Shown here: piece after piece, positions 7,408 through 35,556 of the stretch
Layout of the letters: each line of letters begins with the position of its first letter
Numbering within the stretch: the stretch's first letter is position 1
Assembly: GCA_963695345.1 (NCBI GenBank)
Contig: OY968769.1
Span: forward strand, 32,001-96,000
From: an uncultured Methanomassiliicoccales archaeon
GTDB lineage: Archaea > Thermoplasmatota > Thermoplasmata > Methanomassiliicoccales > UBA472
Direction of reading: 5' to 3'
DNA: 64,000 bases
The notes under the pieces: model-generated
The model's input: the letters and a program-made list of their open reading frames with translations, nothing else
Databases searched by the model: none
Told to the model about the DNA's origin: nothing
Made by a program: the position numbers and the translations under genes

Positions 7408-8208
7408 CTAAGCCAGCCTCACTCTCGATCTTGTCCTCAGGACCTCGGGTGTCAATGCGGCCGTCTCGTCCAACAGGGCGACCTTGAAGGAGGATGGTGC
7501 GGAGGACTTCATGGCTGCCAGCTCACCGGCGATACCGAAAGCGGCCAGGGCGGCGACGGAACCGATGGTCGGATCCTGGGAAACGGCGGCGAAGGACGCG
7601 ACGATGGACGTCGCCATGCATCCAGTGCCGGAGATCCTCCCCATCAGCTCATGGCCGTTGTCGATCTGGTAGGCCGTTCTCCCGTTGCTCACGATGTCCG
7701 TCTCCCCGCTCATGATGACGATGCTTCCCGACGTTCTCGCCAGCTCTCCCGCGATTACCAGAGGGTCCCCGGTGATGCCTTCCGAGTCGACCCCCCGGAC
7801 GATGCCCCCGGTGCCGGCCAGCACTCCGATCTCCCCGGCGTTCCCCTTGATTATCGAGATCTTCAGCCGGTCCATGAGGATGCGCACGGTCTCTGTCCGG
7901 TATTTCGTGGCCCCGGCGCCCACCGGGTCGAGCACGATCGGTATGTTCTGCTCATTGGCCTTCTTACCAGCGAGCAGCATCGAATCCACCTGGCGGTCAT
8001 TGAGGGTGCCTATGTTCAAGACCAGGGAGCTGGCCATCGAGACCATTTCCTCGACCTCTTCCGGCGCATCCGCCATCACCGGGGAGCCGCCGATGCACAG
8101 GGTGATGTTGGCGCAATCGTTTACGGTGACGTAGTTGGTGATATGATGAATGAGGGGGCGCTTGCTCCTCAACGAGATGAACGCGTCGGATAGTTGCTGG
8201 TTCAACAT
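7408..8208 (-). CDS. thiM: Hydroxyethylthiazole kinase
   Basis: [31 protein letters not shown]; ends in TAG. Confidence 0.97.
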
Positions 8209-8495: not shown

Positions 8496-9533
8496 ATGGA
8501 GCTCGTACTTTTCGTGTTCGCCATGGCGGCCATAGCGCTCGCGCTGGCGTTCTCGTTCACCAATGGTTTCCACGATGCCAGTTCCACCGTTGCTACCCTG
8601 ATCTCCTGCGGGGCGGCCTCTCCACGGAGGGCGGTCATTTTGTCCGCTGCCTGGGGATTCGCCGGGGCCATGCTGGGGGGGACCGCCGTCGCCTTCACCA
8701 TGCTGGGCCTGCTGTCGATACCTTTGGGGACCACCCTCGTCTACGTGATCTTCGCCGCCCTCGTCGGGGCGGTCGCCTGGAACCTCATCACCTGGATCTG
8801 GGGAATACCGTCGTCCTCGACCCACGCATTGGTGGGAGGGCTCATCGGTGCGGGGATCGCCGCCGCGGGCCTGGACAAGGTGAACTGGGGGCTGGAGGAG
8901 CTCCTGTCCGCCGGACATCTGGTCGGCATAACCAAAGTGGTCATCTTCCTTTTCCTTTCCGTCGGGATAGGGTTCATCGGAGGATTCCTGGTGATGAAGG
9001 CCACCAAGGTCCTGCTCCGGAACGCCAAGCGGAGGATCAACCGGCCCCTGATGGCCTCCCAATACCTGACCTCGGGATTGCTTTCGTTCAGCCACGGCGC
9101 CAACGACGCCCAGAAGGCCATGGGCATGATGATACTGGTCATCGCCTCGGTGGGATGGGCCCCGGACACCAGCATCCCGCTCTGGGTGATGCTGGCCAGC
9201 GCGATCGCCATGACGGTCGGCACGCTGGGAGGGGGGTGGAAGATCATGAGGACCCTGGGACGCCGGATATTCCGCATACGTCCGATCCACAGCTTCGATT
9301 CGCAGGTGGCATCGACATCGGCGATCCTGCTGTCGACCGCCGCCGGAGCGCCGGTATCGTCCACCCACGCGGTAGCCTCAAGCATCATAGGAGTGGGAGC
9401 GGCGGACAATTCCAAGATGGTGCAATGGGCGGTGGGGAAGGACATGATGGTCTCATGGCTGCTGACGATGCCCCTGACCGCCATTGTCTCTGGACTCATC
9501 TATATCATATTGAAGGGCAGTTTGAACATCTGA
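8496..9533 (+). CDS. pit: Inorganic phosphate transporter (PiT family)
   Basis: NGFHDA, PSSSTHALVG, SHGANDAQK, PVSSTH signatures. Confidence 0.93.
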   Translation: MELVLFVFAMAAIALALAFSFTNGFHDASSTVATLISCGAASPRRAVILSAAWGFAGAMLGGTAVAFTMLGLLSIPLGTTLVYVIFAALVGAVAWNLITWIWGIPSSSTHALVGGLIGAGIAAAGLDKVNWGLEELLSAGHLVGITKVVIFLFLSVGIGFIGGFLVMKATKVLLRNAKRRINRPLMASQYLTSGLLSFSHGANDAQKAMGMMILVIASVGWAPDTSIPLWVMLASAIAMTVGTLGGGWKIMRTLGRRIFRIRPIHSFDSQVASTSAILLSTAAGAPVSSTHAVASSIIGVGAADNSKMVQWAVGKDMMVSWLLTMPLTAIVSGLIYIILKGSLNI

Positions 9534-27573: not shown

Positions 27574-28551
27574 TCAGAACGAGACCGTCCTCTCGATCTC
27601 GACCAGTATCCTCTCGGGCGACACGTAGTAGTGGTCCTCTCCCTTCGGCAGAGGTACGACGATGTCCGGCCCGGCCACCCTGACCACCGGCGCCTGCAGT
27701 GAAAGCAGCGCCTTCTCGTTTATCCTGGCCACGATCTCCGCCCCCACCCCGCAGGTCTTGGGCGCTTCCTGCACCACGATCGCCCGTCCGGTTCGTTTCA
27801 CCGATTCCACCACCGAGGCCGAGTCCATCGGCGACAGGGTGCGCATGTCGATGACCTCGCAGGAGATGCCCATCTTGGCCGCCTCGTCCACTGCTTTCTG
27901 TATCTGGACCATCATGGCGCCCCATCCGATGACCGTCACGTCCTTGCCCTCCTGGACCAGGCGGGCCTTCCCGATGGGGATGACGTACTCGCCTTCCGGC
28001 ACCTCCTCCTTCAGCATGCGGTAGCTGCGGGTCGGCTCAAGGAATATCACCGGGTCCGGGTCCCTTATCGCGGCGGTCAGCAGGCCTTTCGCCTCCAGCG
28101 GGGTGGACGGCACCACCACTTTGAGGCCGGGAATATGCACGAACAGCGCCTCGGTGCTCTCCGAGTGATGCTCCAATGCCTTCACCCCCGCCCCGTAGGG
28201 CATGCGCATGACCAGGGGGACGGTCAGCCGGCTCCTGGTCCGGTTCCTCATCCGGGAAGCGTGGGAGATGAGCTGGTTCATGGTCAGGTAGGAGAATCCC
28301 ATGAACTGTATCTCCGCCACCGGCCGCAGGCCGTTGATCGCCATGCCGATGGCCATGCCGACTATGCCGCCCTCCGCCAATGGAGTATCGATGACCCGGG
28401 CGGGGCCGAACCTCTTCTGCAGGCCATCGGTGACCCGGAACACGCCGCCATCGACGCCGATGTCCTCGCCCAGCGCGACCACGGTAGGATCTCTCTCCAT
28501 CTCCAGGGCCAATGCCGAATTGATGGCCTGCACCATGTTCATCGAGACCAT
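27574..28551 (-). CDS. pdhB: 2-oxoacid dehydrogenase E1 beta subunit
   Basis: MVSMNMVQAIN..., GEDIG..GGVFR, DTPLAE, EHHSE; own SD-like GGGGGTG before ATG 28551. Confidence 0.93.
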   Translation of the reverse strand: MVSMNMVQAINSALALEMERDPTVVALGEDIGVDGGVFRVTDGLQKRFGPARVIDTPLAEGGIVGMAIGMAINGLRPVAEIQFMGFSYLTMNQLISHASRMRNRTRSRLTVPLVMRMPYGAGVKALEHHSESTEALFVHIPGLKVVVPSTPLEAKGLLTAAIRDPDPVIFLEPTRSYRMLKEEVPEGEYVIPIGKARLVQEGKDVTVIGWGAMMVQIQKAVDEAAKMGISCEVIDMRTLSPMDSASVVESVKRTGRAIVVQEAPKTCGVGAEIVARINEKALLSLQAPVVRVAGPDIVVPLPKGEDHYYVSPERILVEIERTVSF

Positions 28552-28553
28552 CT

Positions 28554-29637
28554 TCACACCCCCTTCTTGGCCGGTTCGGCCTTGATCTTCTCCATCTGTT
28601 CGACCATGTCCGGAGACATCTCCGCGTACGATGTGCCGGAACACCTCCTCCACGGTCGGCCTGGGATAGTTCTCCGCCTCGGAGACGGCCTTCTCCACCA
28701 GGTCCTGGGCCTCCTTCACCGCCTCGTCCTCCAGTTCGTCGTTCCATATGCCTTTGGCCTCGAGATAGCGGTTGAACCGGTCCAGCGGGTCCTTTTGCAT
28801 CCATTCCGCCAGCTCGGAGTCCAGCCGATACCTGGTGGCATCGTCCGATGTGGTGTGGTCTCCCAGCCGATAGGTGTAGGCCTCGATCAGGGTCGGACCG
28901 AGCCCGCTGCGCGCCCGGTCCACCGCCTCCTTCCCCGCGGCGTACATGGCCAGGATATCGTTGCCGTCGACCAGGATCCCGGGGAACCCGTAGGAGATGG
29001 CCTTCTGGGCGATGGTGGGGCTGCGGGTCTGGTTCCTGCGCGGATAGGATATGGCGTACTGGTTGTTCTGACAGACGAACACCACCGGCGATTGGTAGAC
29101 GCCGGCGAAGTTCGCGGCCTCGTGGAAATCGCCCTCCGAACTCCCCCCGTCCCCGAAGAACGCCACCGATACCGTGTCCTCCCCCCGGAGCTTCGCCGCG
29201 TACGATATGCCGACGGCGTGGGTGAGCTGGGAGCCGACCGGGACCGAGGAGGGCAGGGCCCGCACGTCATCGGGGTAATGACTGCCCATCTCGTTTCCCA
29301 TCCAGTAGAGGAACTGGTTCACCAGGGGCACCTGATGATAGAGGAGGCCGCCCAACTCCCGGAAGGACCAGACGAACCAATCGTCCTTCCTCATGGCCAT
29401 GGCCGGTCCGATCTGCGCCGCTTCCTGACCCTTGCACGGAGGGTACGCCCCCAGGCGCCCCTGCCTCTGGAGCTTGACCGCCTTTTCATCGGCCACCCTG
29501 GTCAGTACCATGGTCTTGTACGCCTGGATGAGGGTGGGGTCGTCGAGCTTGGGGTCCAACCCGTCGACGACTGTTCCATCGGTCTTCAGTATCTGCAGCA
29601 TCTTCCCTTCGAGCGGGTTGAACTCATCGATCAGCAT
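28554..29637 (-). CDS. pdhA: 2-oxoacid dehydrogenase E1 alpha subunit (1-nt insertion near 28630 falsely fuses it to E1 beta)
   Basis: TPP motif GDGGSSEG...NN, HTTSDD; the shifted frame gives a normal end YAEMSPDMVEQ...KKGV* (TGA 28556-28554). Confidence 0.9.
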
Positions 29638-30522
29638 TTATGCCCCTCCGATCTGTTCCAGGATCCCCTGTGCTTTGTAAGATGTACGGACCAGTGGTCC
29701 GCAGGCGATGTATCGGAAACCCATGGCGCGCGCTTCCTGCGCCAGGCCCTCGAACACCGACGGTTCGACATATTCGGTTATTGGCAGGCTCCCGCCCTTG
29801 GGTTTCAGGTATTGACCGATCGCTATCGCATCCACCCCGACGGCGCGCAGGTCGGACAGGGTGCGGACCGTTTCGGACAGGGTCTCACCTAGCCCGAGCA
29901 TGATGGAGCTCTTTGTTACCATATCTGGATACAAACCCTTCAGCCCGGCCAGCAATTTTAGTGAGCTGGCATAGGACGATCTCGGGTCCCTTACACTGGC
30001 CTGAAGGCGCTCCACCGTCTCGATATTGTGCCCGATCACCTCGGGTGCGGAATCAGCCACCAAACGGATCGCGTTCCCCTTTCCGGAGAGGTCGGGGATC
30101 AGCAGTTCCACCTTGCATCCCGATGCTTCGTGTATGGCGCGTACCGTCTCTGCGAACACCGAGGCCCCGCCGTCCTTGAGGTCGTCCCTGGTCACGCTCG
30201 TGATGACCGCGTACTTCAGACCGAGCTCTTTGATGGCCTTGGCAACCCTTAATGGTTCCGAAGTATCGTACGAACCGTCGAGGTAACCGTGCTTGACCGC
30301 GCAGAAACGGCAATGCCGGGTGCAAATATCCCCGAGGATCATGAACGTCGCGCTCCGGTCCGACCAACATTCCCGGATGTTCGGGCAGTGCGAGGCATCG
30401 CAGACCGTGTGCAGGGAATACTTCTTCGTCACTTCCCTGACCTTGTCAAAGTCTCCGCCTACGGCCGCGATGGTCTTCAACCAACCGGGCTTCTCCAGTT
30501 GGGGCGTTCTCAATTCACTCAC
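29638..30522 (-). CDS. lipA: Lipoyl synthase
   Basis: CDASHCPNIRECW and radical-SAM CTRHCRFC; C-terminal VRTSY. Confidence 0.96.
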   Translation of the reverse strand: MSELRTPQLEKPGWLKTIAAVGGDFDKVREVTKKYSLHTVCDASHCPNIRECWSDRSATFMILGDICTRHCRFCAVKHGYLDGSYDTSEPLRVAKAIKELGLKYAVITSVTRDDLKDGGASVFAETVRAIHEASGCKVELLIPDLSGKGNAIRLVADSAPEVIGHNIETVERLQASVRDPRSSYASSLKLLAGLKGLYPDMVTKSSIMLGLGETLSETVRTLSDLRAVGVDAIAIGQYLKPKGGSLPITEYVEPSVFEGLAQEARAMGFRYIACGPLVRTSYKAQGILEQIGGA

Positions 30523-30665: not shown

Positions 30666-30983
30666 GGGGCGCTAGGCTAGACCGGGACGCTCGGCGTGTC
30701 CTTATACACCGAAATCGTCGCTGCGGGGGTGACAGCGAGGGGCGTCGTATCCGGGGAGGCATAGGCCCAACCGTTGATGTTGAGGCTCTGTCCTACGGGG
30801 TCGGTGGCAGCTCTGGGGTGCAGCTGGAGGGTTGCACTCCTTGCTCTGATCACGGGGAACGGGTCAGGCCCTGACGGGAACAGCCTTACCGTGGACTACC
30901 TACGCTCGAAGGGGAGCGGGGCTGAGTCAGCGGTTGGATCACCTGTGCCAAACTGAGCGGCCACCCTTGTGGCCTAGCACTCC
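30666..30983 (+). ncRNA. ffs: Archaeal signal recognition particle (7S) RNA
   Basis: About 318 nt, GC-rich; termini pair (GGGGCGCTAGGCT / GGCCTAGCACTCC); helix-8 core GGGTCAGGCCC-TGAC-GGGAACAGCC; pyrimidine run after the 3' end. Confidence 0.88.
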
Positions 30984-31141
30984 TTTCACTTCCTGACGAT
31001 GGTCAGGATGATTCAGAAAAAATATGGAACGGTCCATCCCCCATCTGGACCCAATAAAAAGGGGGGACCTGATCGACTGGACCGGAAGACAGGAACCTTG
31101 TCGATCAATGTTCCTATGATGCCTATGGACCTTCCGGTGCC

Positions 31142-31927
31142 TCATCCATAGAACCTGATCTTCCTGAGGACATTTTTCTGGCCAGCAACGGCAGGCTCCT
31201 TTTTCCTTAGGACCTTGGGCCGGGTCACGATGGGAACCCGTACAGTGGGCGGCCGATCGTCCGGCTTCATCAGCTCTATCATAATCCTCGATTGCACCTT
31301 CGGATTGAACATCAACGCCTGGACCGGCTGTATGGCTATCCGGTTCGGGACGATACCCTCATCACTGATCTCGACCAGGACCGGTTCCATCCTCATCCTC
31401 AGCTTCTCCCGGTCTGGATATTCTACGGTCAGCTCCGCCTGTCCCTTTCCTTCGATGTTCCTGATGGAATAGATGCCCGGCCGCAGGATGTGGGCGACGA
31501 AGAGATCGCCAGACCCCAGCGCTCTGCTGTCGAAGACCTTCACCGACGCCTTTCCCTTCTCGCGGCGAAGGAGCTCGACCGCATAACCCCCGGGACCGGT
31601 CGGGGCGCTGAATATGATATTACCGCCGGTGCGGAGTGCGAACCGGTTGTCGCAATCCTCCGTCGCTTTGCCCAGGGAACCGTCCAGGCCGGCCAGGTCG
31701 ATGTTCGCCAACCTGGGGAGGTCTTCACACCCGGATGGTTCGCCTTCGCTTTCAGAAACGGTCAGCGAGAACGTGCCGACCTTGGCCGCCCCCCGGTATA
31801 CCATGCCACAGTATTTCCCGCTCTCGGCGCACTTGTGCATGACCGAGCTCAGCGTGGCCAGCGAGCCGCTGTCGACCGTATCATCTCGAAGGACCATAGA
31901 TTTGTCAAATGTCGATTTCGTGATCAA
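31142..31927 (-). CDS. Hypothetical beta-rich protein with an internal duplication
   Basis: DSGSL...H....GKY and DSRAL...H...PGIY repeats; TTG start overlaps the upstream stop. Confidence 0.75.
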   Translation of the reverse strand: MITKSTFDKSMVLRDDTVDSGSLATLSSVMHKCAESGKYCGMVYRGAAKVGTFSLTVSESEGEPSGCEDLPRLANIDLAGLDGSLGKATEDCDNRFALRTGGNIIFSAPTGPGGYAVELLRREKGKASVKVFDSRALGSGDLFVAHILRPGIYSIRNIEGKGQAELTVEYPDREKLRMRMEPVLVEISDEGIVPNRIAIQPVQALMFNPKVQSRIMIELMKPDDRPPTVRVPIVTRPKVLRKKEPAVAGQKNVLRKIRFYG

Positions 31928-33722
31928 TTTCCCACGTCTCCTTGTATCACCATCTCATGGGAATCAACGCTGACCCCGATGAACTCGATAGGGATCTTGA
32001 CCGGTATCAGCCCGCCTTCCTGCTCCATTACGGTAAAGGGGTCCGCTAGCTCGAACGCCGCCGGGATCAACAGGGCGATGTAGTCATAGAGGGCGTTCAG
32101 CAGGGCGCTGAAGATCCCGATCTGACCTATCATGTCCATCAACCATTCTCCAATGTCGTCGGGAATGTCCAGGATGACCCGGATTATGTTCTCGATCCCT
32201 CCCAGTATGCCGTCTATCAGGTCTATCGCCCATCCCGGGGCACCGAGCGAGCTGAGGAGGTTGTCGATGGCCCCCTGGACGAGGTTCTTGAACAGGTCCC
32301 CAACGGTGTCCGCGATGTCTATTATGTCAAGGTCCAGCGGCAGAGTCGGCACCACCACGATCTGCCATCGGTTGTGCGTGCCAGAGCCGACTCCGTAGAA
32401 CGATCTCATCCGGGCACTGACCGTGACCTCGGATGTGATCAGCCCGCTCAGGTCGATCGGTACGCTGATGTCTGGATCGCCGGTGAAGAAACAGAAACTG
32501 GGCAGGGTAACGCATTCCCCGCAACCGACAAGGGGGACGTCGCAGGAAGGGTACGGCGGCAGCACGCAAACCTGCCCGCCTCCGACGCACTGCTTCGGGA
32601 TGTCGATCCCTATGTCGAGCCTCAGCTTGTCCCACTTGAGGTCCAGCTCCTTGATTATGATGGAACCGTCGTCGCGCATCTCCAAGGAACCTCCCTCGAG
32701 ATGGGCGGCCACGTTGTAGCTGGCGGTGAAGGGTCCGAAGCTCCCGGTGCCGGTCTTCTGGAAATGGAACCCCTTGACGATGGCGGTGAATATCTTCCCG
32801 AAGGCATCCGCCGAAACAGCGGCCGTCAGGTCGAACGTCCCGCTCCTGGTCCTCGGGCGGGTCGTCCGCGTCACCGTGCCGCCGCCGGAACCGGAGGATC
32901 CTCCCCACCGGACGAGGGCGGCGGCAGGTTGAGCGTGACACTGTCCAGGTTGATGAACGCCTTGAACTGGTTCTCCTCCACGGCCGGGTTGTGCGGGACG
33001 GCCGTCGACCCGGACAGCGTCAGGCTGCCCAATCCCTCGGGAAGGCTGATGGCGTGGAACGCCACCGCCGATATGGCCTCGGCGGCCTTCGGCAGGATGC
33101 CTCTGTTCATGACCAGGAGCGCATAGCACTCGATCGCCTCCTCCAGGCCATCCGGCTTCAGTTCAGGTATCTCGATCCCGGACACGTTCATGGAGATGGA
33201 TTGGTTCCCTGGCTGGCCCACGATGCTGAGCGAACCGGTGGCGAAAAGGCCGAGGCAGAAGCAGGTTATGTCCGTTCTCTTGTCGCCCCTGACCGGGCGA
33301 AGGGGGGTGGGCCAAAGACGCGTCCTGGGTTGACAGATCAATCCCGCGCACACCTCGAAATGGACCGCGAAATTCTGGTCGGCGAGGGGAGGGTTCAGCT
33401 CTGGAGGGAGGCTGATGACATTTCCGGGAAAAAAGTCGACCGCGCCTTTCGTCAGCTGGACGATGTAGTCGAGGGTTATCGCCGGGATGGCCGGGGTCAT
33501 GAGAACCGGCAGCGGGTCCATCTCGGTCATCAGCGGGTTACCCGCCCGCAGGACGGCCGGAACCGCCGGGATCGCTCGGCAGATGGGCAGTGGATTCGTT
33601 GCCGGTTGGATCGACCCATAGTTGAAGAGGGAAGGCCTCTGCAGCATGACATGACGGAGGATGCGGTTGATGCAAGCATCCTGGACGGCAACATAGAAAT
33701 CGGAGAACTGGGTGAACGTCAC
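31924..33722 (-). CDS. Hypothetical ~600-aa two-domain protein (split by a probable missing G near 32905)
   Basis: Adding one G in GGTGGGGAGG joins ...LNLPPPSSGG to GGSSGSGGGTVTRTTRPR...; the second ORF has no credible start of its own. Confidence 0.7.
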
Positions 33723-34109
33723 GGCCGATCACCAGACTTGAGGTGTGAAGACGATGTTCTGTTCATGTTCGGTCCCCATTTTGAACGATACGGTCTGGTC
33801 CGACCGCGAAATATAAAGAACATCGTCGCCACGATAGCGGGAAACCAGGGTCATGAGCAATCTGGGCCATGTCCAGACAGGAACCCGATCCTGATTCTTT
33901 GTCCAGGACGTCGGACCTCCTGCTTTCCCCATTGAGCATTCTTCAGCCGATCTTTGCTCGATGGGCGCTGCTTTTCCTTCCTAGGTCTCTTCCGAAAAAA
34001 TGGTCAAAGCCCGGCCATCCCTGCCAACGACCCGCTAAGCTGATGCATGACGATCATGAAAGGAAACGACCTAAGGTCCGCTAGTCATGCTGGACCCACC
34101 GTCCTTTCC

Positions 34110-35117
34110 TCATTTCCCCAGCGCGATCTCTTCCCATCCGACGGTGGAGGCGGGTTTGCATCCGGTTATGTTCTCGGTGTTCAGATCGAACAGGGTCGAC
34201 GTCTCATCGCCGTCGGTGACCTTGAAGACGTTAGTTCCATCCACCTCTCCGATCACCGAACCGGTAATGCCAACCGTGCTGAACTGATCGACTACCTGTT
34301 GGGAATTCCTCGGATCGCAGGTGACCACGAACCCTGCCCCCTGGTAGGACTTGAGCCACTGGGAGAGATCGATCCCCTTGGGTATCGGGATCCTGTTGAT
34401 GTCCACCAACGCCCCCTTCCCGCTGGTCTCCAGCAACATTCCCAGCGTACCAAGGGATCCTGGGTTGCTGATGTCCTTTCCGGAGCGGAGCAGCTTCTTC
34501 TTGGCGATCTTGTTCATTATCATAATCTGCTGCCGGGCTATGGTCGAATCCTTCTTCGAAGTGGTATCCCAGGCGTAGGTCAGTCCCTCGGGATAGAACC
34601 CGTCCAGGTCCATCGCCATGATGATGTCGTCCCCGGACTGGGCGGTGTGGGAGTAGATGACCTCATCGAGCTTGGCGGTACCGATGATCGCCACATCGAT
34701 GGCGTTGTAGGTGCAGTCCGGATGGGTATGCCCGCCGACGATCGGCACACCGAACTTCTTGACGGCGGTCTCCATGCCGCGCATGACGTTCGCGCAGACC
34801 TTCTCTTCCTTGATCGATAGAACGTCGAGCATGGCCAACGGGACCCCGCCCATCGCGGAGATGTCGTTGAGGTTGACGAGAACGGCGTAGTAGCCGGCAA
34901 AGAACGGATTGGCCTTCATCAGCGGCTGCATGATGCCGTCCGCCGCGAGAAGCATCGCCTCTCCGTTGTGCTCCATCACCGCCGCATCCTCACCGTAGGA
35001 CGCGAGCACCTTTGACGACGAGACCTTGGGGAAGAAGTTGATAACACTTGAGATTGCTTTCTTCCTAGTGATTCCTGGGTACGCCTTAATATCGGACACC
35101 AGGTCGTTAAGAGTCAT
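34110..35117 (-). CDS. Methanogenesis marker 2 protein (AIR synthase-related)
   Basis: YPGITRK, GEDAAV, LLAADGI, NDISAMGG, VGGHTHPD, KDISNPG. Confidence 0.88.
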   Translation of the reverse strand: MTLNDLVSDIKAYPGITRKKAISSVINFFPKVSSSKVLASYGEDAAVMEHNGEAMLLAADGIMQPLMKANPFFAGYYAVLVNLNDISAMGGVPLAMLDVLSIKEEKVCANVMRGMETAVKKFGVPIVGGHTHPDCTYNAIDVAIIGTAKLDEVIYSHTAQSGDDIIMAMDLDGFYPEGLTYAWDTTSKKDSTIARQQIMIMNKIAKKKLLRSGKDISNPGSLGTLGMLLETSGKGALVDINRIPIPKGIDLSQWLKSYQGAGFVVTCDPRNSQQVVDQFSTVGITGSVIGEVDGTNVFKVTDGDETSTLFDLNTENITGCKPASTVGWEEIALGK

Positions 35118-35556
35118 GGTATGGTGTATCGTGGAAGCGATTATAACCTTTATCACGCCGCGGTTGACTGGCATGACAAAAAGGGACACGCCTCAAGAAC
35201 GTCCTAGAACAGCTCGATTCATTTAGAGAAATGGTCGATGCCTCGATTGGCTCCATCTGTTTCGGTCAATTTCGAAAAGGATGATGAACATTTTTTTTTC
35301 CGAAATTTTCTAGTCAGAACAAGAATAACAAAACATATAACAGCAATTATTAGGAAATCCACCGAGTAACTTAGGACAGCGGTCATGCCATCTCCAGCAT
35401 TCTTGTATTTCTATGTTCATTTTTATAGTCTGCTGTGAAAAAGTCCTTTGAACCAAATCTGAGATCCTCCTCGCAATAAGTTATCATCCACATTCTTCTC
35501 ACTTGATCGATACATGGACATGTCTGCATTATGACCTATTCCTTCCAGCCCGGGTC

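Follow-up and report, generated by a model that had tools for sequence, protein, structure and literature searches.

A predicted double-TULIP protein and its beta-sandwich partner between mmp2 and ffs in an uncultured Methanomassiliicoccales archaeon

The locus and the predicted fold of its large protein

We analysed a 64,000-nt stretch of DNA from an uncultured Methanomassiliicoccales archaeon (contig OY968769.1; hereafter, the window) and describe a cassette of three open reading frames (ORFs A, B, and C) located between the genes for methanogenesis marker 2 (mmp2) and the archaeal signal recognition particle (SRP) RNA (ffs). ORFs A and B encode the two halves of a large protein, separated here by a frameshift, and ORF C encodes its partner. 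According to its structural model, the large protein is a tandem (pseudo-dimeric) BPI-like double TULIP. The pair it forms with the partner is widespread in soil and sediment archaea and bacteria and had not been described.

For the fold, we modelled with AlphaFold the intact 603-aa orthologue of a congener (87% identical to the C half in the window) with 52 homologues, and obtained a mean pLDDT of 81.3 and a pTM of 0.71. At E <= 0.001, Foldseek retrieved 14 PDB matches, and the 13 listed were all BPI, LBP, CETP, P47, or OrfX. The best one was BPI (E 2.6e-11), and the listed clostridial matches were P47, OrfX3, and OrfX2 of Clostridium botulinum. With VIA-align, 11 chains presented a Z of at least 8. 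BPI ranked first (Z 12.3; 366 aligned residues, root-mean-square deviation 4.4, model residues 5-603 against chain residues 1-455), followed by CETP (12.1), P47 (11.5), LBP (9.9), OrfX3 (9.7), and OrfX2 (8.8). Single-domain TULIPs matched either half: YceB the N half (Z 7.8), and JHBP, Takeout, Der f 7, and Mdm12 the C half (Z 6-7.4). Both searches are in line with the tandem TULIP/BPI-like fold proposed in the initial annotation, which was made from the sequence alone. That annotation also described a Cys-rich loop and an acidic helical stretch in the second half, and both are present; the acidic insert contains 12 Asp and Glu residues vs. 2 Lys and Arg. On the contrary, the sequence likeness it saw between the two halves was not significant (hhalign probability 2.5%), and we claim an internal duplication at the level of the modelled fold only.

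At the sequence level, none of the three ORFs matched a Pfam family at E <= 0.1 (including PF01273/PF02886, PF06597, PF14356, and DUF1439) or an NCBIfam family at the same threshold, and the intact orthologue had no NCBIfam match at E <= 0.01. Searching the large protein against the sequences of solved structures gave a best E of 0.37. Atlas feature scores to clusters of known TULIP Pfam families ranged from 0.78 to 0.83, which is a lead only. Thus, judged by sequence, the double-TULIP protein appears to fall outside every described TULIP family.

No N-terminal hydrophobic segment was found using hydropathy only and no signal-peptide predictor (top 19-residue Kyte-Doolittle means of 0.84, 1.17, and 0.41 over the first 15 windows), which agrees with the absence of a signal peptide noted initially. 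No N-terminal extension was seen either, and 41 of 74 N-halves begin at the first aligned residue.

Table 1. Coordinates in the window of the cassette, its parts, and the genes at its borders
Feature	Position	Strand	Remarks
ORF A	33722-32871	-	283 aa; N-terminal TULIP domain (model); last ~16 residues are linker read out of frame
ORF B	32874-31924	-	316 aa, GTG start; C-terminal TULIP domain (model)
ORF C (partner)	31927-31142	-	261 aa, TTG start; two beta-sandwich domains and a basic tail (model)
Methanogenesis marker 2 (mmp2)	34110-35189		TIGR03267, 383.8 bits vs. cut-off 365
Archaea_SRP RNA (ffs)	30670-30979	+	158.6 bits
Whole cassette, 3.13 kb	30980-34109	-	Inserted between the mmp2 stop codon and the ffs 3' end
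Cys-rich loop of the C-terminal domain	32464-32610	-	ORF B residues 89-137; nested co-varying Cys pairs
Acidic multi-helix insert replacing the single TULIP helix B	32050-32304	-	ORF B residues 191-275; five helices in the model
Partner C-terminal tail, basic, disordered	31145-31261	-	pLDDT < 50 when modelled alone; conserved end motif
GGGG run, frameshift site in the Gly/Ser linker	32903-32906	-	One G fewer than in relatives
TATA-box-like element, possible own promoter	33809-33820	-	~90 nt upstream of ORF A; putative function
Hairpin and T-run, terminator-like	31017-31040	-	Downstream of ORF C

The genes of the cassette are tightly packed (Table 1). ORF B and ORF C overlap by 4 nt (TTGA), and so do the stop codon of ORF A and the GTG of ORF B (GTGA). 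TTGA-coupled genes between ffs and methanogenesis marker 2 had been reported initially, and the ORF coordinates and the SRP RNA and TIGR03267 matches agree with this layout. An A/T block upstream of ORF A is kept in three congeneric upstream regions and the rest of the spacer mostly is not. This TATA-like block and the hairpin with its T-run would fit an independent transcription unit. Terminator-like sites in the region numbered 4, vs. 2.7 +/- 1.9 expected by chance, and the counts of a consensus scan for terminators and promoters were not clearly above chance.

Distribution of the pair and its modelled complex

A word-indexed search retrieved 156 homologue clusters at 90% identity, whose named members were all "hypothetical"; none of the 120 clusters listed carried a precomputed Pfam domain. 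The profile search over 1.84 billion representatives retrieved 700 clusters at E <= 0.001, 547 of them at E <= 1e-10. Scanning one genome per species gave 193 loci, of which the best 80 were kept; the loci examined in detail were 82 (L002-L083). Archaeal hosts among the kept loci were Methanomassiliicoccales, Methanoregula, Methanosarcina, Methanospirillum, an ANME-2 archaeon, Bathyarchaeota, and many Nitrososphaerota. The bacterial ones were Chloroflexota, Acidobacteriota, Actinomycetota, Nitrosomonas, Nitrosospira, other Proteobacteria, Bacteroidota, Cyanobacteria, and Fibrobacteres. The spread is patchy and centred on soil and sediment organisms. After the module, seven loci, mostly of Bathyarchaeota, present a conserved ORF of ~140 aa without Pfam match (L013, L015, L028, L036, L054, L060, and L073; about 8640-9180 in most).

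We scored the linkage of the partner with a family hidden Markov model over the 82 loci. The partner gene lies directly downstream of the TULIP gene in 73 of them, from Methanomassiliicoccales to Cyanobacteria, and the flanking genes otherwise vary from locus to locus. The window and three related loci share the 4-nt TULIP/partner overlap. Of the nine loci without a partner match, three end at a contig edge (L007, L016, L067), one is partial (L041), one is apparently interrupted (L035), and four are others. In the interrupted case, from Methanosarcina sp. DH2 (L035:6001-8648), the TULIP match extends over 2.6 kb, the ORF ends at 7644, no partner match follows, and the gene looks interrupted. 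The halves are split in 29 of the 82 loci. The co-occurrence of fused or split domains across taxa, which the initial annotation suggested looking for, was found.

The AlphaFold model of the partner (pLDDT 77.3, pTM 0.73) presents two beta-sandwich domains followed by a disordered tail with 11 Lys and Arg residues vs. 3 Asp and Glu. Two copies of a conserved motif each open one sandwich domain; the motif at the end of the tail is conserved in the archaeal subset only. The partner had been seen as duplicated: the two motif copies stand, but a duplication at the sequence level was not significant (hhalign probability 2.7%). Searches for a known fold gave little. The partner had no match to solved structures by sequence, nothing in Foldseek at E <= 0.001 (best E 0.021), and a best VIA-align Z of 3.4 to unrelated sandwiches over 48,161 chains, none of which reached Z 5. 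For the cupredoxin-like fold initially proposed, a permuted azurin reached Z 2.7, and the Atlas cupredoxin clusters scored 0.77 only, at most a weak lead. With these values, we dropped a specific cupredoxin assignment; as modelled, the partner looks like a generic Ig/FN3-like sandwich.

We predicted the complex with the two proteins of the congener and our own alignments of 52 and 47 rows. The runs gave ipSAE values of 0.68, 0.67, and 0.68, vs. 0.01 for the best control, shared at least 81% of the contacts, and presented a partner pLDDT of 75-77. Of 157 solved complexes, 116 reached the mark used for this score, as did 2 of 215 mismatched pairs; these counts are only approximate here, as our own alignments were used. 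The modelled interface is on the C-terminal TULIP domain (residues 384-550) and includes the Cys loop (384-418), a strand (465-474), and the helical insert (476-550). In the model, the last 11 residues of the partner (251-261) pair with strand 467-471 of this domain, and the basic tail faces the acidic insert, so that their charges are complementary. The prediction supports binding of the partner to the C-terminal TULIP domain. Together with the linkage of both genes, it favours the role of accessory subunit first assigned to the partner.

Frameshift, insertion, and horizontal transfer

We searched 41 genomes of the order and found the TULIP gene in three, all from the genus of the window and including its own genome. 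In two of the seven other genomes of the genus, A and B form one ORF of 603 and 623 aa (matching open frames of 605 and 625 aa) with a Gly/Ser-rich linker at the A/B junction, and a 261-aa partner comes next with a 4-nt overlap. ORF A aligns with residues 1-~270 of the 603-aa orthologue, and ORF B is 87% and 82% identical to the congeners over all its 316 residues. Moreover, two environmental contigs from two runs carry one extra C behind position 32902 of the + strand; read on the coding strand, it extends the run at 32903-32906 to five G. At the break, the first contig covers 151 nt with zero other differences and the second one 261 nt with 6 differences (depths of 3.9 and 3.3). The source strain had no match among public sequencing runs (best word share 0.14), and no RNA run was listed for this stretch. 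The fused congeners and the environmental contigs confirm that restoring one G joins the two ORFs, as initially proposed. An assembly error in the homopolymer and a real, recent mutation are equally likely causes of the missing G. We considered programmed frameshifting and set it aside: the run in the relatives is just one G longer, and the site shows no evident slippery heptamer.

Both forms of the gene are found across the family. The two halves lie in one ORF in 49 of the 82 loci, in one ORF broken elsewhere in 3, and in two adjacent genes in 29; one locus is partial. All the split loci break at the same junction as the window. Among the best 150 of the 700 representative clusters, 65 contain N-halves only and 53 C-halves only (118 single), and 15 are complete fusions. 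These comparisons show that the split form, which the initial annotation did not note, is natural and common, and the more diverse state. In the window, the break lies within the non-conserved linker and spares all conserved positions of the two halves. Since the break spares these positions, produces a start/stop overlap, and resembles the natural split form, the frameshift probably leaves the function and need not inactivate the protein, and the split form may well be active here. As a lesson for annotation, this "frameshift" sits on a natural domain boundary.

Conversely, the module could be a decaying pseudogene in this genome, with a real loss of the G, an untranslated ORF B, and a working system only in relatives. 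The single-contig assembly has 4 G vs. 5 G in two congeners and two environmental contigs, and the module is dispensable in the genus, being not found in 5 of 8 genomes (one of them 55% complete). However, ~1.8 kb contain a single lesion, which sits in the non-conserved linker, and are otherwise free of stops and frameshifts. ORF B keeps its high identity to the congeners over its full length, the break recreates the natural split junction with its start/stop overlap, and a homopolymer length error is an equally likely cause. We therefore consider decay quite improbable.

Regarding the origin of the cassette, mmp2 is present in 7 of the 8 genomes of the genus, and the eighth genome is 55% complete. 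In four congeners (G004-G007) the site is empty: ffs starts ~11-15 bp after the mmp2 stop, vs. 3,130 bp between them in the window. The empty sites identify the 3.1-kb cassette as inserted DNA between mmp2 and ffs, and we regard this insertion as recent. The heptamer GAAAGGA is found at both borders, just after the mmp2 stop (34100-34106) and just before the ffs end (30980-30986, minus strand reading), and the empty site of a congener reads differently. It is too short to call it a target-site duplication.

The identities of the TULIP protein and of mmp2 follow opposite orders. Against the orthologue of congener G003, TULIP proteins are 74-80% identical in Methanoregula, 59-65% in Methanosarcina, and 48% in another Methanomassiliicoccus metagenome-assembled genome (MAG). 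For the mmp2 of the window, these values are 46%, 45-46%, and 63%, respectively. The cassette has a GC content of 0.55-0.65, the same as its flanks, so its composition gives no sign of foreign origin. Because of the discordance with mmp2, the empty sites, and the spread across both domains, the data support that the cassette was horizontally acquired and moves between archaea and bacteria, and the horizontal acquisition that the initial annotation considered probable gains weight. Its presence in close relatives turned out to be partial: the module is in 3 of the 8 genomes of the genus (window included) and was not found in the other 5. The Methanomassiliicoccus MAG (L045) carries a second, divergent module, 48% identical to the protein of the congener despite being a closer relative than Methanoregula, which suggests separate acquisitions of the module within the order.

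Two further observations concern the surroundings of the cassette. An ORF of 687 aa (27574-29637, minus strand) combines E1_dh, Transket_pyr, and Transketolase_C, as a fused alpha-beta E1 of a 2-oxoacid dehydrogenase; the gene immediately upstream of it (29638-30522, minus strand) encodes a lipoyl synthase-like radical SAM protein. Upstream of mmp2, the GC content drops to 0.42-0.46 at 35000-35500, vs. ~0.6 around it, and this segment contains a 55-aa ORF with a hydrophobic segment.

Proposed function and comparison with known systems

The surroundings of the window added nothing on function, and the clues to a ligand came from other loci. In 13 of the 82 loci, which are bacterial, from at least four phyla, and all of the split form, two further genes follow the module, with gaps to the added gene of -36 to +27 nt in the 10 loci where the gene was called. 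The first one encodes a DMATS-type (ABBA) aromatic prenyltransferase: its profile matched PDB 6zrz with an E of 8.8e-13 (residues 23-360 vs. 11-344 of 360), and its TIGR03429 match was below the cut-off of that model. The second one encodes a squalene-cyclase-type alpha/alpha-toroid of ~330 aa, with PF13243 above its cut-off in 11 of 11 members scanned. The solved TULIPs among the structural matches include binders of a sesquiterpenoid hormone and of beta-carotene.

We also observed two lipid-related associations. P0252, a representative cluster of 681 aa, has an esterase/lipase-like alpha/beta-hydrolase (DUF676, PGAP1-like) fused before an N-half TULIP. In a Nitrosopumilales MAG, a patatin-like phospholipase gene (L017:8911-10218, plus strand) lies 123 nt downstream of the partner, a single case. 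The prenyltransferase and cyclase neighbours, these associations, and the ligands of the matched TULIPs point to a ligand that would be hydrophobic and probably of isoprenoid type.

The cysteines of both domains bear on where and how the protein would work. In the N-terminal domain, six of them (ORF A residues 48, 125, 130, 154, 156, and 199) are found in 70-74 of 74 N-halves. In the C-terminal loop, they form nested pairs whose members are gained or lost together in 76 C-halves: ORF B 89/137 (both 25, one 0, neither 51), 96/128 (both 55, one 0, neither 21), 111/121 (both 11, one 0, neither 65), and 103/118 (both 65, one 6, neither 5). There are ten different pair patterns, although related sequences are not independent. 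This pattern is as expected of disulfides rather than of a Cys4 metal site, to go by the alignment. We rejected a Cys4 site in this loop, as its cysteines appear and disappear in pairs that do not depend on one another.

The invariant cysteines of the N-terminal domain could still bind Zn or Fe-S in a redox or metal protein, where the TULIP fold would be a scaffold or sensor and not a lipid carrier. They are kept in archaea and bacteria and represent a large share of the invariant positions; strict anaerobes are numerous among the hosts, and no export signal is seen in the protein. However, the cysteines of the C-terminal domain vary strictly as mutually independent pairs, as disulfides or paired packing would, no metal-binding family or motif was matched in Pfam or NCBIfam, and, apart from this family, lipid binders are the only proteins known to have the tubular fold. 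We thus find a redox or metal role improbable.

In our preferred interpretation, which we find fairly likely, the products of the cassette are the two components of a soluble binder of hydrophobic ligands in the cytoplasm. Lipid binding is what the modelled fold and the gene context lead us to infer, and the lack of an N-terminal extension or hydrophobic segment suggests the cytoplasm as its location. ORFs A and B together would form a BPI-like double-TULIP tube. ORF C would be a dedicated adaptor. As modelled, it grips the C-terminal TULIP domain at two additions specific to the family, namely the Cys-ladder loop and the acidic helical insert, while its basic tail would extend the TULIP sheet by one strand at the edge. 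The adaptor may control the opening or loading of the tube, by analogy with TipB acting on TipA in Bdellovibrio. The ligand would most likely be an isoprenoid-type lipid or a prenylated metabolite.

A more specific version is possible but doubtful: an ancient, self-contained, mobile intracellular carrier system for isoprenoid-type molecules. In bacteria, the pair would keep or pass on what the DMATS prenyltransferase and the cyclase-like enzyme make, and its targets in archaea would be their isoprenoid membrane lipids or quinones. The adaptor and a redox-sensitive cysteine ladder would gate the tube. If true, archaea would gain their first described lipid-transfer-protein system, and prokaryotes their first cytoplasmic double TULIP.

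Several points weigh against a cytoplasmic binder of hydrophobic ligands. The TULIP gene is frameshifted in this assembly, and four loci (L008, L009, L073, and L076) have no partner match despite enough downstream sequence. Complex formation is predicted, with the orthologues of the congener rather than the chains of the window. The disulfide-like cysteines of both domains fit poorly with a cytoplasmic protein of a strict anaerobe. Besides, the prenyltransferase/cyclase link is restricted to the 13 bacterial, split loci, the prenyltransferase profile had no match in the genome of the window (a search with no positive control), and the archaeal neighbourhoods scanned gave no recurring functional hint.

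Some of these points would suit a membrane-active or conflict agent acting outside the cell, like BPI or the clostridial OrfX/P47 accessory proteins, which would be released without a signal peptide (by lysis or unconventional export), stabilised by disulfides, and helped by the partner as a targeting or activating subunit. P47, OrfX2, and OrfX3 rank with the closest structural matches (Z 8.8-11.5) and are not known to carry signal peptides either, the nested co-varying pairs and the six invariant cysteines look like disulfides, and the module has a patchy distribution that is driven by transfer and centred on soil and sediment organisms. Moreover, TipA is reported to bind and destabilise bilayers (10.1101/2025.09.09.675085). 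Nonetheless, no toxin, secretion, or lysis gene recurs among the neighbours scanned: Pfam detected no toxin gene among 49 neighbour proteins, which are a part of the neighbours at the 82 loci. PADLOC gave no match for the seven proteins tried, Pfam gave no OrfX-like match, neither protein has an export signal (no N-terminal extension or hydrophobic segment), and the only recurrent neighbours are biosynthetic enzymes. We regard extracellular action as unlikely. We kept it open together with the redox or metal role because the disulfide-like cysteines conflict with the missing export signal and the anaerobic hosts.

In eukaryotes, TULIP proteins have central roles in lipid transport and innate immunity, but those of prokaryotes are thinly described. 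The family presented here is a large natural set of fused and split double TULIPs with no Pfam or NCBIfam model. If the cytoplasmic binder is correct, it may offer a handle on how archaea, and ecologically important nitrifiers and methanogens, deal with hydrophobic isoprenoid compounds in their cytoplasm. A full-text search combining TULIP terms with archaea or archaeal found no paper on archaeal TULIPs, in a scope that leaves most subscription journals outside. The word "archaea" appears 0 times in both a remote-homology study (Levine 2019, PMC6791001) and a TULIP review from 2017 (PMC5507252).

Among known families, BPI, LBP, and CETP (PF01273, PF02886) share the pseudo-dimeric two-tube arrangement and match over the full length of the model (Z 12.3, 9.9, and 12.1). 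However, they are secreted, eukaryotic, and without a partner subunit, and no sequence-level match to them was found here; the window family has in addition the Cys loop, the five-helix insert, and ~150 more residues. P47, OrfX2, and OrfX3 (PF06597) of C. botulinum are prokaryotic tandem TULIPs (Z 8.8-11.5) encoded in small operons with accessory proteins. They are not known to carry signal peptides. In contrast to them, our proteins had no PF06597 match, the partner is another kind of protein, and no toxin gene was present among the neighbours scanned. The bacterial TULIP families listed in the remote-homology study are P47/OrfX2, YceB/DUF1439, DUF4403, DUF2140, and DUF2993 (Levine 2019, PMC6791001). 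Of these, YceB resembles the N half (Z 7.8). DUF4403 and YceB/DUF1439 are mostly lipoproteins or secreted proteins of the diderm envelope, whereas the window family has no Pfam match, lipobox, or signal and is found in archaea too.

By analogy, the closest known system is TipA/TipB of Bdellovibrio bacteriovorus (10.1101/2025.09.09.675085). There, a BPI-like double TULIP is encoded directly upstream of a beta-sandwich adaptor with a 4-nt overlap, and TipB binds TipA directly and opens the tube. TipA carries a signal peptide, and its proposed site of action is the periplasm or the prey. TipB consists of a single small C2-like domain whose loops enter TipA's N-terminal TULIP domain. Both systems share the operonic arrangement of a double TULIP and a beta-sandwich adaptor with the 4-nt overlap, adaptor binding being modelled in our case. 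On the other hand, the window proteins have no export signal, the partner combines two sandwich domains with a basic tail, and the model places the interface on the C-terminal TULIP domain. Besides, the window family occurs fused and split in both prokaryotic domains. The two systems were compared by description, not by sequence, and no TipA/TipB-like chain appeared in the PDB searches. The pair described here may represent a second, independent example of an adaptor-controlled TULIP after TipA/TipB.

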